From Chlamydiota bacterium (GTDB lineage Bacteria; Chlamydiota; Chlamydiia; Chlamydiales; SM23-39), in the NCBI GenBank assembly GCA_027451825.1, contig DAIDHZ010000002.1, positions 13,190-77,189 of the forward strand: a stretch of 64,000 nucleotides of DNA, written 5' to 3'. Made by a program: the position numbers. Shown here piece after piece: positions 21,001-24,000 of the stretch (its first letter is position 1; each line of letters starts with the position of its first letter).

Positions 21001-24000
21001 TGGTGGGCGATTCCGATCATGATCACAGTCAATTTGCCGCATATGAACTTGTATAATGGTAGCGTGGGTGTATTGATTGGACAAAAGCGGGGGCGAATTC
21101 ATCTTTTTTCAGCCGTTAGTTTTTTTGGAAGTGAGGAAATGAAGGCGTTGTCTTCATTTGAAGTTTCTTTCGTCCTTTCGATTCATAAAAGCCAAGGGAG
21201 TGAATTTGAAGAAGTGATGGCTCTTTGTCCGGATGGGAGTGAAAATTTTGGAAAAGAGGCTCTTTACACGGCAGCAACGCGGGCTAAAAAGAAGTGGGAG
21301 CTTGTGGGTAAAAAAGAGATCATTTGTCAGATGTTGAAGAAAAGCTCCCGAAAAATGTCCGGGTTTTCGATCAGGATTAAAAAAGAACAAGATGCATTGT
21401 TGTGGAGACTTGCTCAAAACAGAGCATTTACGTAAAATACCCACTTTTCTTCATTTGGAAAGATGGCTGAGTGGCCGAAGGCACGTCCCTGCTAAGGACG
21501 CGTACTCTGTTAAAGGGTACCGAGGGTTCAAATCCCTCTCTTTCCGTTCTTTTAGATGATTGTGGCTTTTTAATTTAAAGATCCGAAAGCCTTTTTCGCA
21601 GCTTCTATCGTTCTTTCTAGAAGACCGCCTTTTATTCTGATTCTTTCCGATGGTCTTTCATTAATAACGAATTCCGGGGCGTATTTCATTGCTGTATGAT
21701 TAGTTTCTGTTTTATTAATCGTCTTACCTCTTATTATTTAATTATATTTTAACATAAAAATTAATTAATTTGCAAATTATAGTATAATTTTAAGCGATTG
21801 ATTTTTAGCGCCTTGCAATTGGTCGTTAAATTTTCATCATGAAAAAGGGAGGCTTCGGATATGATGACTTAAATCAAAGGAATTCTATGGCAGAAGTTGA
21901 AAAGAGGGTAAAAGTCCCCCCAAATTCTAAAGAATCTGAGATGATGGTCCTCGGTTGTATGCTCACGAGCTCAAATGGCTTGAATGTGGGGGCGGATGCC
22001 TTGCAGATGGAGGATTTCTATTATACGGAGCATCAGCCCATTTTTGCCTCTTTAAAGACGGCGTATGTTTCGGATAAGCCTGCCGATATCCATTTGATTG
22101 CTGAGGATTTAAAACGGCAAGGGAAGCTAGAAAGTGTTGGAGGGGTCAGTTATTTGACCTTGCTTGCTCAATATGCAGGGACTTCGGCATTTATTGAAGA
22201 GTATGTCGATTTGGTCCGTGAAAAAGCGGTGCTGCGGCGAATGATTCATGCCGCCCAAAAGATTGAAAAAGAGGCTTTGGAGGGCCCTTCCGATGTTGCC
22301 GCGACTTTGGATTCGGCTCAAAGTTATTTTTTCAACATTTCTCAGGAAAATCAGAGAACACCTGGAATTGTTTTAAGGGATTTGATTTCGGGGTTAAAGG
22401 CAGAGTCTAAAATTCCCTACTTGAAAGAGCTTCAGGAAAGACAAGAGGCTTTTAAAGAAAGGGATCCGAATGCTCCGAATATTACGGGAATGCCCACTCA
22501 TTTTGTTGATTTAGATCGAATGCTCAATGGGTTTAATATGTCCAATTTGATGATTTTGGCAGCGCGTCCTGCGATGGGTAAAACGGCGCTTCTTCTTTCG
22601 ATTGCAGAAAATATTTGTTTTAAGAATGACGTGCCTGTTGCGATTTTTTCTTTAGAGATGGGTGCATCTCAACTTTTACATCGTATGATTTGCTCGCAAG
22701 CAGAGGTCGAATCTGAAAAGATACAGACAGGATCTTTGAACGGCGCCGAATATCAACGTGTTGTTGCGGCAGTGAACAAGATGCAAAAACACACCATGAT
22801 CATTGATGATCAGCCAGGGCTTAAAATCACAGATCTAAGAGCCAGAGCCAGAAGATTGAAAGAAGCGTATAAGATTGGATTTATTGTGATCGATTACTTG
22901 CAGCTTTTGGGAGGATCCGGCGCTCTTCGCTCAATGGAAAGTCGTCAGAATGAAATTTCTGAAATTTCTAGAATGCTGAAAAACCTGGCAAGGGAACTCA
23001 ATATTCCGATTCTTTGCGCAGCGCAGCTTTCTCGTAAAGTTGAGGAGCGGCAAGGTCATCGTCCGATGATGAGCGACTTAAGAGAGAGCGGATCGTTGGA
23101 GCAAGATAGCGATATTGTGATGTTTTTGCTGCGTCGTGAATATTATGACCCCTATGATAAGCCGGGAATGGCTGAAGTGATTGTTGCAAAGAATCGTCAT
23201 GGAGCTGTTGGAAGTGTTCATCTTGCTTATCGCAAAGAGATCTCTCAATTTGCAAATTATACGGCAAAGCCGATGCCGGGTGAGTTGACAAAGAGTAATA
23301 AGGAAGCCTTTTCTGCTTTTTCTCCTGAGTGAAAAGGAATTTTGATTTTATTTTGAACCACAGAGCAAGGGACTCCGTAATGTTTAGAAGTGATAATAGA
23401 GAATTTTTCTCTGTAGAGCCAATTGCAAAACTGCTTTGCCCGGAAAAATCGATGATTTTGAGGTCATTTAAGAGGGCAAGCGAGCTTGCCCGATTCACTT
23501 CGACGAACCCAACCCCTGGTGGGTTGGGTAAGGAGAGTGAACTTAAATGGCCCCAAAAGGGCGATTTTAACGGGCAAATGAGTTTTGCAATTGGCTCTGT
23601 AGTTGAAAACATCGAACCCTCTTACATAGTCTCTGTGTCCTCTGTGCTCTTGTGGTAAAAATAAAGGGTGCTAGACATGGGAAGATTTTTGATCTTTTTG
23701 GGAGTTTTTACATCCGTCATTTCTAAACCTTTAGATGTAGAAATCACGGCTAAATCGGCGATTTTGATCAATGCAGAGACAGGCGCCATTCTTTATGAAA
23801 AACAGCCTCATCTTCCTTTGTATCCCGGGAGCATTATAAAAATTGCAACAGCACTTTTTGCTTTAGATGCAAAAAAAGTGGATGTGGATCGAATGGTGAT
23901 GGTGAGCGAAGAAGCTCTTAAAATTAAACCCAAAGATCCATCCGATGATTATCCTCCTCATTGGGGTGCTATAGAAGGGACAAAGGCAGGCCTTCTTCGA

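Follow-up and report, generated by a model that had tools for sequence, protein, structure and literature searches.

Two identical copies of a probable IS1182-related MITE in a chlamydia-like bacterium

Two identical copies of a palindromic repeat lie in the stretch of Chlamydiota DNA analysed here (64,000 nucleotides in all, hereafter the window). Each copy is very probably (with a probability of roughly 0.87) a 182-bp miniature inverted-repeat transposable element (MITE), a non-autonomous relative of the IS1182-family insertion sequences (IS) of the ISUnCu17-like clade, which would be mobilised in trans. Its kind is an ordinary one, but appears to be undescribed in chlamydia-like bacteria. 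The first-pass annotation had called the repeat MITE-like, a description that is upheld by its size, its inverted repeats, the 4-bp duplications at its flanks, its dispersed copies and the ends that it has in common with insertion sequences.

Results

Anatomy and boundaries of the two copies

The sequences at positions 23415-23598 (copy A) and 40953-41136 (copy B) are 100% identical across 184 nt and lie in the same orientation at unrelated intergenic sites, as originally described. Direct comparison and a scan of the window also agreed with the earlier account of the ends, in that the 18-nt termini AGAGCCAATTGCAAAACT form perfect inverted repeats, which extend to 28 nt with two mismatches. 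The 18-nt end has four matches within the 64-kb window, against 0.13 expected. The nested hairpins of the interior are likewise present as first given.

The extent of the element, in contrast, had to be revised from 184 to 182 bp. The element proper runs from GAGCC to GGCTC (copy A, 23416-23597; copy B, 40954-41135), because many related elements with a base other than A next to GAGCC keep matching 4-bp flanks; the first A and the last T of the 184-bp sequence belong to the duplicated target. The flanking dinucleotides GT..GT and AC..AC, which had been read as a 2-bp target-site duplication, are in fact the middle of 4-bp direct repeats. These are TGTA at copy A (23412-23415 and 23598-23601) and TACA at copy B (40950-40953 and 41136-41139). 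Between the two repeats of each pair lies the element, and in copy A its left terminal inverted repeat (GAGCCAATTGCAAAACT, 23416-23432, + strand), presumed to be a transposase-binding end, is an exact inverted match to the right one (23581-23597, - strand). The scan with the 18-nt end placed the corresponding repeats of copy B at 40954-40970 (+) and 41119-41135 (-). Copy A is assigned the + orientation because the AAAATCGATGATTTT arm comes first; copy B has the same orientation. The GC content of copy A is 48%, compared with 32-36% for the flanking DNA. Profile and BLAST searches of the 64-kb window revealed no copies beyond these two.

Genomic setting and coding content

Copy A is situated between dnaB (21839-23332) and a dacC-like gene of the Peptidase_S11 family (23668-24864), 70 nt upstream of the start of the latter. 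Copy B occupies the convergent 3' region between a radical-SAM (EpmB-like) gene (39771-40772, + strand) and an orphan ORF of 127 aa (41193-41576, - strand). Given these positions, both copies may alter transcript ends or stability.

None of the ORFs that cross the element matched a Pfam family, consistent with their earlier dismissal as artefacts. The 182-bp element carries no gene of its own and gave no tblastn match to the linked transposase described below, and consensus scans found neither a promoter-like site nor a convincing terminator inside it. Disruption of a gene by copy B was also considered. Removal of 186 nt does restore an ORF of 140 aa, but this ORF is without any homologues and a 110-aa part of it overlaps the radical-SAM gene; it was treated as non-coding.

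The terminus recurs across phyla with 4-bp target duplications

In a collection of species-representative genomes the 18-mer terminus was found exactly in more than 115 stretches among the matches listed, where about 17 would be expected by chance. The matches come from Chlamydiota, Lentisphaerota, Verrucomicrobiota, Zetaproteobacteria, Syntrophia, Bacteriovoracaceae and others. Beyond nucleotides 18-19 of the terminus the sequence diverges at once, and the outer flanks are unrelated. When ends lying less than 400 bp apart were paired, 38 of 58 pairs had identical 4-bp flanks, where chance predicts about 0.5 and shifted controls gave 0-1. Among 82 paired elements from an independent set of metagenomes, 47 did so as well, with the consensus T-W-W-A. 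The same architecture recurs at hundreds of places in many genomes.

Members of the chlamydial subfamily are most often 182 bp long. Of two chlamydial metagenome samples, Ga0206972 contains at least 29 copies and Ga0206877 at least 17, with median pairwise identities of 93% and 98%, respectively. These copy numbers and identities form the pattern that lineage-specific bursts would leave. The window element is 83.5% identical to its nearest relative.

One orthologous site could be compared. At locus L113 an element sits between the stop codon of a surA-like gene and ksgA, and in the window the element is absent from this position, the surA-like gene and ksgA overlapping there by ATGA (46367-46370); the two genomes are distant and the L113 copy lacks a clean duplication. 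A clean empty site was not found among close relatives, and junction BLAST over all fetched loci gave only self-matches of the mini-elements. A related copy at L188 (1628-1809) lies in frame inside an LplA/LipB gene, where it splits the catalytic domain and the reading frame stays open, the insertion of 182 + 4 = 186 nt amounting to 62 codons. This is the one confirmed case of an in-frame gene insertion among 73 copies. Several reading frames of the element are depleted of stop codons relative to shuffled sequences.

The same ends bound IS1182-like insertion sequences

The terminus also bounds insertion sequences of 1.4-1.5 kb, which encode a 365-aa protein with the Pfam domains DUF772 and DDE_Tnp_1. 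Full-length elements with the 16-mer at one or both ends are found at L032, L100 and L110, in phyla other than Chlamydiota; that at L032 (1036-2545) measures 1510 bp and is flanked by the duplication TGTT. The 365-aa transposase belongs to a family of at least 8000 clusters at 90% identity. Across 98% of its length it shares 45% identity (E = 4e-91) with the 'IS1182-like element ISUnCu17 family transposase', and the linked transposases score 69-77 bits with the NCBIfam IS1182 model, well under its cut-off of 270. ISUnCu17 itself is bounded by GAGCCTCTTGCAAAAG and GAGCTTCTTGCAAAAC, in which 13 of 16 positions agree with the ends of the window element, and its 4-bp duplication reads ATGA; in a Comamonas relative the 4-bp duplication is TGGT.

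A 315-bp element at L022 retains N- and C-terminal remnants of the transposase, and is therefore a deletion intermediate. The interior of the chlamydial subfamily has no recognisable derivation from the IS copies of other phyla. No homologue of the linked transposase was found within the 64-kb window, in keeping with the earlier remark that no transposase gene is present there. Chlamydial metagenome contigs that carry the MITE, about 0.7 Mb in all, likewise yielded no transposase of this family, and neither did the fetched loci of chlamydial genomes. Long end pairs that might have represented chlamydial insertion sequences (L186, 1765 bp; L157, L140 and L007) turned out to be separate MITEs bracketing ordinary genes, for example an APC-type permease.

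The hairpin fold is unusually well preserved

The predicted RNA fold of the element has a free energy of -107 kcal/mol on the + strand (z = -14.3) and of -99.7 kcal/mol on the - strand (z = -14.1). Among 17 representatives, drawn from separate genomes and samples, pairing is found in 94% of the cells of the fold-back, as against 38-52% with slid partners. Compensatory changes are seen in 33 of 60 pairs, with a covariation score of 0.435 compared with no more than 0.118 in controls. On the 'top' strand, wobble states are biased (G:U in 159 cells, A:C in 28). The bias persists among states shared by at least two copies (19 to 4, p = 0.003), private mutations being symmetric (18 to 18); within-genome copies are not independent, and a few families therefore dominate the counts.

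The two arms also carry conserved, asymmetric subterminal motifs, AAAATCG-ATGA-TTTTG on one and AAAATCG-CCC-TTTTG on the other. Orientation relative to the neighbouring genes is random (++ 9, -- 10, +- 10, -+ 11). A search of Rfam 15 gave nothing at gathering thresholds in the window, and nothing at E <= 10 on 23350-23670.

Discussion

The 4-bp duplication with its T-W-W-A consensus points to a DDE transposase of the IS1182/IS5 type rather than one of the IS630/Tc1 or IS30 type. On this reading the 365-aa DUF772+DDE protein, supplied in trans, would bind the 16-18-bp terminal inverted repeats GAGCCAATTGCAAAAC(T) and would excise or copy the element. It would then insert it at a staggered 4-nt cut with a preference for T-W-W-A, repair of which would give the direct repeats TGTA at copy A and TACA at copy B. 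Because the copies are identical in sequence but differ in their target duplications and share no flanking sequence, they represent two separate recent insertions of one master copy. Recent mobility, one of the two explanations put forward in the first-pass annotation, is the best reading of their 100% identity. A source of transposase presumably exists, or recently existed, in this genome.

Two accounts of the repeat are very hard to reconcile with these data. In one, the original proposal of a 2-bp target duplication is coupled with an IS630/Tc1-like or IS30-like transposase; the 184-mer is indeed flanked by GT..GT and AC..AC. At both window copies, however, the flanks match over 4 bp, as they do in 85 related elements, some of which have a base other than A beside GAGCC. 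Furthermore, the duplications are not TA, and the protein of the full-length elements is neither an IS630 nor an IS30 transposase. The flanks of the related elements refute this proposal. An IS30-type origin, suggested by a CAATTG-containing end and duplications of 2-3 bp, was rejected on the length of the duplication and the DUF772+DDE transposase. So was a TA duplication of the IS630/Tc1-mariner kind with shifted ends, the flanks of other copies being 4 bp, variable and not TA. A palindrome of the REP/RAYT kind (20-40 bp, headed by GTAG or CGTC and without a duplication) does not fit an element of 182 bp that starts with GAGCC and has a 4-bp duplication. Segmental duplication, gene conversion or an assembly artefact, with no mobile element involved, would suit the presence of only two copies in the window. 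It is nevertheless extremely improbable, as the identity ends exactly at the inverted-repeat ends and the duplicated target, the flanks are unrelated, and the architecture is so widespread.

Two further possibilities leave the element a MITE, and both are considered unlikely. It may be a fossil, the matching transposase having gone from the genome and the two identical copies being what a burst, now over, produced last. The failure to find a transposase in the window or in 0.7 Mb of element-bearing chlamydial contigs accords with this, as does a tally of just two copies in 64 kb. That search, however, sampled only a small fraction of any chlamydial genome, and a biased one. An identity of 100% across the 182 bp, together with intact 4-bp duplications, speaks for very recent activity, and related assemblies contain dozens of copies at 93-98% identity. 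Alternatively, a MITE by origin may have been kept for a single-strand function, either as a structured RNA (a terminator, stabiliser, RNase III target or small RNA) or as a strand-specific ssDNA intermediate needed for spread, which would add to the main explanation. The fold z-scores of about -14, the compensated pairing, the excess of G:U over A:C and the conserved asymmetric motifs speak for such a function. Against it stand the absence of an Rfam match even at E <= 10, the random orientation to neighbouring genes, the absence of an internal promoter-like site or convincing terminator, and the dominance of a few families of non-independent copies in the counts; besides, stable hairpin transcripts are general among MITEs (PMC10969869). 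The earlier suggestion of an unknown ncRNA gains nothing from Rfam as far as a known family is concerned; the covariation of the fold-back and the one-strand wobble bias would allow a constraint on a single strand (RNA or ssDNA) in addition to mobility.

DDE transposition needs only the ends of an element, and therefore does not explain covariation of the whole fold-back or wobble bias on one strand. A more speculative and rather unlikely proposal is that compensatory evolution maintains the whole fold-back throughout chlamydial and other PVC (Planctomycetes-Verrucomicrobia-Chlamydiae) genomes, with wobble pairs allowed on one strand only. The 182-bp subfamily would then go beyond a passive MITE, in that its spread or retention would call for a single-stranded form with a defined polarity (structured RNA or strand-specific ssDNA intermediate). 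Such an element might spread in genomes without a transposase of their own and, like the Rickettsia palindromic elements (RPE), be tolerable in frame inside enzymes. A strand-specific ssDNA intermediate would be unexpected for a DDE transposon.

The probable IS1182-related MITE described here provides an annotation for a repeat that otherwise yields spurious ORFs and breaks assemblies in chlamydia-like genomes, and is a record of MITE activity in a lineage of obligate intracellular bacteria. It is tied to an IS1182-like clade that is unnamed and very large, with at least 8000 protein clusters and with 16-nt ends that do not differ from phylum to phylum. The covariation and the wobble bias on one strand give a testable approach to the question of why the hairpins of palindromic MITEs persist.

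Literature searches returned no match for the terminus string, no MITE in Chlamydiae and no IS1182 in Chlamydiae, and a 2024 review of MITEs mentions neither Chlamydia nor IS1182 (PMC10969869). IS1182-derived MITEs with 4-bp direct repeats are, however, already documented in Methanosarcina (PMC3852290). Those of M. acetivorans measure about 160-170 bp, have inverted repeats of 25-26 bp and are partnered by ISMac2 (Kamoun et al., 2013). Compared by description, they resemble the window element in size, in their 4-bp direct repeats, in having several to many copies and in their IS1182-family partner; they differ in being archaeal, with the partner IS in the same genome, whereas none was found in the chlamydial sequences searched. 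ISUnCu17 and related IS1182-family elements occur on plasmids of Aeromonas, Acinetobacter and Comamonas. Their transposases are 43-48% identical to the one that shares the MITE ends, and the termini GAGCCTCTTGCAAAAG and GAGCCAATTGCAAAAC, of ISUnCu17 and the window element respectively, are both accompanied by a 4-bp duplication. They are autonomous, measure 1.44-1.48 kb and carry a gene, whereas the window element is 182 bp without one, and its ends match exactly not ISUnCu17 but another, environmental clade (L032, L100, L110).

The RPE (background in PMC10969869) are likewise palindromes of about 100-200 bp from obligate intracellular bacteria, found both between genes and in frame within them. 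The likeness is by description, and the in-frame trait comes from the related copy at L188, both window copies being intergenic. What separates the window element from the RPE is its clear terminal inverted repeats, its 4-bp duplications and an IS family that can be identified. Terminal inverted repeats, a long stable stem-loop transcript and a preference for intergenic sites are shared with QMITE of Coxiella, Correia of Neisseria and ERIC of enterobacteria, and the fold of QMITE2 is given as about -113 (PMC10969869), compared with -107 kcal/mol for the window element. QMITE, Correia and ERIC differ in their IS families and duplication lengths, and the window element is set apart from them by a 16-nt terminus identical across several phyla and by a covariation that has been quantified.

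Identity, ends and target-site duplications of the window copies

The repeat is truly mobile DNA: it is an IS1182-family MITE (ISUnCu17-like clade) with 4-bp T-W-W-A duplications, and it has transposed twice, recently, in the region of the window. The 'MITE-like' reading of the first-pass annotation is borne out, and 'recent mobility' is the reading that best fits the perfect identity. The two copies, placed at 23415-23598 and 40953-41136, are identical and in the same orientation, as judged from reading of both sites and from a repeat search, which also showed that their flanks are unrelated to each other. 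The identity of this 184-mer stands, and its length is corrected: the true element is 182 bp, with the junctions TGTA-GAGCC...GGCTC-TGTA in copy A (23416-23597) and TACA-GAGCC...GGCTC-TACA in copy B (40954-41135).

When the ends of related elements were paired using the 16-nt core GAGCCAATTGCAAAAC, the same 4-bp flanks were present in 38 of 58 paired elements shorter than 400 bp, against ∼ 0.5 expected by chance and 0-1 in shifted controls. In an independent metagenome set, retrieved with a search pattern that left the flank bases untouched, 47 of 82 paired elements behaved likewise, with the consensus T-W-W-A. Many paired elements in which a base other than A adjoins GAGCC still show matching 4-bp flanks (for example TACG, TTCC, TCTG and AGTG). 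The window duplications are therefore TGTA and TACA, and the 2-bp target duplication first proposed is the middle of the 4-bp one.

The perfect 18-nt terminal inverted repeats AGAGCCAATTGCAAAACT gave four matches in the window against 0.13 expected, and the nested stems previously named are indeed present, within a single long interrupted hairpin. For the + strand the RNA fold is predicted at -107 kcal/mol (z = -14.3) and for the - strand at -99.7 kcal/mol (z = -14.1), and the GC content of the element is 48%, compared with 32-36% in the flanks. Copy A lies between DnaB and a Peptidase_S11/DacC-like protein, and copy B between a radical-SAM (EpmB-like) protein and an orphan 127-aa ORF. Removal of copy B restores a 140-aa ORF; because this ORF has no homologues, gene disruption was rejected and copy B is treated as intergenic. 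ORFs crossing the element gave no family matches, and neither BLAST nor profile HMM found a third copy in the window.

A second repeat family is also present in the window, with arms of which none are expected by chance. At 2038-2544, 40-nt inverted arms, each with tandem CCACAGAGA motifs, bracket a gene (2084-2497) for a 137-aa PDDEXK_3 ('GxxExxY') nuclease (E = 1.4e-42); at 39649-39722 the same two arms stand face to face across a spacer of just 18 nt, and a degenerate solo arm lies at ∼ 23628-23662, immediately right of copy A. This looks like a gene-carrying hairpin cassette and its 'empty' version. In addition, Rfam places tRNA genes at 782-854 (-) and 21457-21546 (+), the latter 90 nt long, of the long-arm type, between a 548-aa ORF and dnaB.

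Autonomous relatives and the IS1182 family

Full-length elements with these ends were found in three loci from other phyla, L032 (1036-2545, 1510 bp, duplication TGTT), L110 (879-2388) and L100 (6344-7754), and the 365-aa protein that each of them encodes combines DUF772 and DDE_Tnp_1 domains. In the NCBIfam ranking of this protein IS1182 was best, followed by IS5 models, all far under the cut-offs. The best matches among annotated plasmids were an 'IS1182-like element ISUnCu17 family transposase' and an 'IS1182 family transposase', in alignments that cover 98% of the length with 43-48% identity. ISUnCu17 itself (L116, 442-1924) has the ends GAGCCTCTTGCAAAAG and GAGCTTCTTGCAAAAC and flanks ATGA/ATGA, and a Comamonas element (L117, 451-1888) has flanks TGGT/TGGT. 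When clustered at 90% identity, the 365-aa family falls into at least 8000 clusters, most of its members being on ∼ 1.4-1.6 kb contigs and labelled merely 'transposase'. The transposases of L032 and L110 are 94% identical, and their MAGs are labelled Syntrophobacterales and Lentisphaeria, a pattern due either to recent horizontal transfer or to a binning error.

Searches of the window, the chlamydial genome loci and ∼ 0.7 Mb of chlamydial metagenome contigs found no homologue of this transposase; the first-pass annotation had already noted no transposase gene in the window. A 315-bp element (L022, 7562-7876; duplication TAAT) retains N- and C-terminal transposase coding remnants and L104 carries a truncated IS, which illustrates how internal deletion gives rise to short derivatives; both, together with L001, represent stages between IS and MITE. 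A published report describes MITEs in Methanosarcina that derive from IS1182 and have 4-bp direct repeats (PMC3852290).

Distribution of the terminus and the chlamydial subfamily

Among the matches listed from a species-representative genome collection, the 18-mer terminus occurs in more than 115 stretches, some few of them plainly chance (∼ 17 expected). These matches include Rhabdochlamydia and several Chlamydiales MAGs within the Chlamydiota, as well as Lentisphaerota, Verrucomicrobiota, Phycisphaerae, Zetaproteobacteria (Mariprofundus), Syntrophia and other Desulfobacterota, Bacteriovoracaceae, Alphaproteobacteria and Sumerlaeota. When the listed matches are turned inward, 18-19 nt are constant and lineage-specific sequence follows, the outer flank being unrelated. 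Mini-elements of 36-52 bp are made up of just two terminal repeats with a short spacer between them (L102 1185-1234, L079 6138-6187, L005 5762-5811, L090 4447-4482), part of them with 4-bp duplications such as TCAA and GGAA.

Full-length relatives among the first loci came from Chlamydiae/Chlamydiales MAGs and one 'uncultured bacterium' MAG, and share conserved subterminal motifs, GAAAAATCGATGATTTTG in one arm and CAAAAGGGCGATTTT in the other. Scanning metagenomes for 'end + motif' yielded 88 stretches, most from a few samples, with a modal length of 182 bp. Ga0206972 holds at least 29 copies of 150-200 bp (median pairwise identity 93%) and Ga0206877, also the source of a 'Chlamydiae bacterium' MAG, at least 17 (98%); such copy numbers and identities are the signature of lineage-specific bursts. 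The nearest relative of the window element, in L159, is 83.5% identical. Window proteins are 62-81% identical to those on element-bearing contigs, so that the window belongs among environmental chlamydia-like bacteria; a search of 15 billion sequences found nothing that matches the window proteins at 90% identity or more. In L186, a chlamydial metagenome contig, separate MITE copies at 2506-2613 (108 bp) and 4088-4270 (183 bp), each with the duplication TTTA, lie on either side of an amino-acid-permease-like gene, possibly as a composite arrangement.

Covariation and strand bias

The fold-back covaries strongly, as judged from 17 representatives, each set of copies coming from a different genome or sample (a smaller version used nine sequences). 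Paired cells amount to 94%, against 38-52% with partners slid; both partners have changed in 33 of 60 pairs, and covariation scores 0.435, compared with at most 0.118. Even end position 4 swaps jointly, from C..G to G..C.

Wobble pairs were counted in the 182-bp subfamily (67 unique copies, from alignment A2 and additional copies), read with the ATGA-motif arm AAAATCGATGATTTT first, that is, on the + strand of both window copies. G:U occupies 159 paired cells and A:C 28. Single-copy states are symmetric (18 to 18), whereas states in at least two copies are biased (19 to 4, p = 0.003, same-genome copies not being independent); propagated variants therefore tolerate wobble only on one of the two strands. 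This bias is not explained by a plain double-stranded DDE mechanism and, given the non-independence of same-genome copies, is a lead rather than a result. It may stem from selection for an RNA of that polarity, from a strand-specific single-stranded intermediate, or from deamination bias in transposition. As regards an RNA, Rfam gave no match to the element even at E ≤ 10, consensus scans of it found neither an internal promoter nor a convincing terminator, and copies are oriented at random with respect to the genes that flank them (++ 9, -- 10, convergent 10, divergent 11).

Insertion sites and comparison with known elements

In L113, from a related genome, a 257-bp copy (3964-4220) lies between a surA-like stop codon and ksgA, whereas in the window the surA-like gene and ksgA share an ATGA stop/start overlap (46367-46370) with no element between them. 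The L113 ksgA frame is open from the old ATG across the whole element (389 aa versus 271 aa). The genomes are distant and the L113 copy has no clean duplication, so that this comparison is no more than supportive; among the fetched loci, a systematic search for junctions revealed no empty sites.

No description of this element, or of any MITE, in Chlamydiae was found in the searchable literature. Three features add to its interest: its 16-nt ends are identical across phyla, its covariation has been quantified, and wobble is biased to one strand. Compared with shuffles, the subfamily has several reading frames that are poor in stop codons (for example, 53% open versus 11%). A 182-bp copy in L188 (1628-1809), 73% identical to the window element, lies in frame inside an LplA/LipB-type lipoate ligase, where it splits the Pfam match of the catalytic domain; with its duplication it adds 182 + 4 = 186 nt, or 62 codons, and the ORF remains open. 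This in-frame behaviour resembles that of the Rickettsia palindromic elements (PMC10969869). Both window copies lie outside genes.
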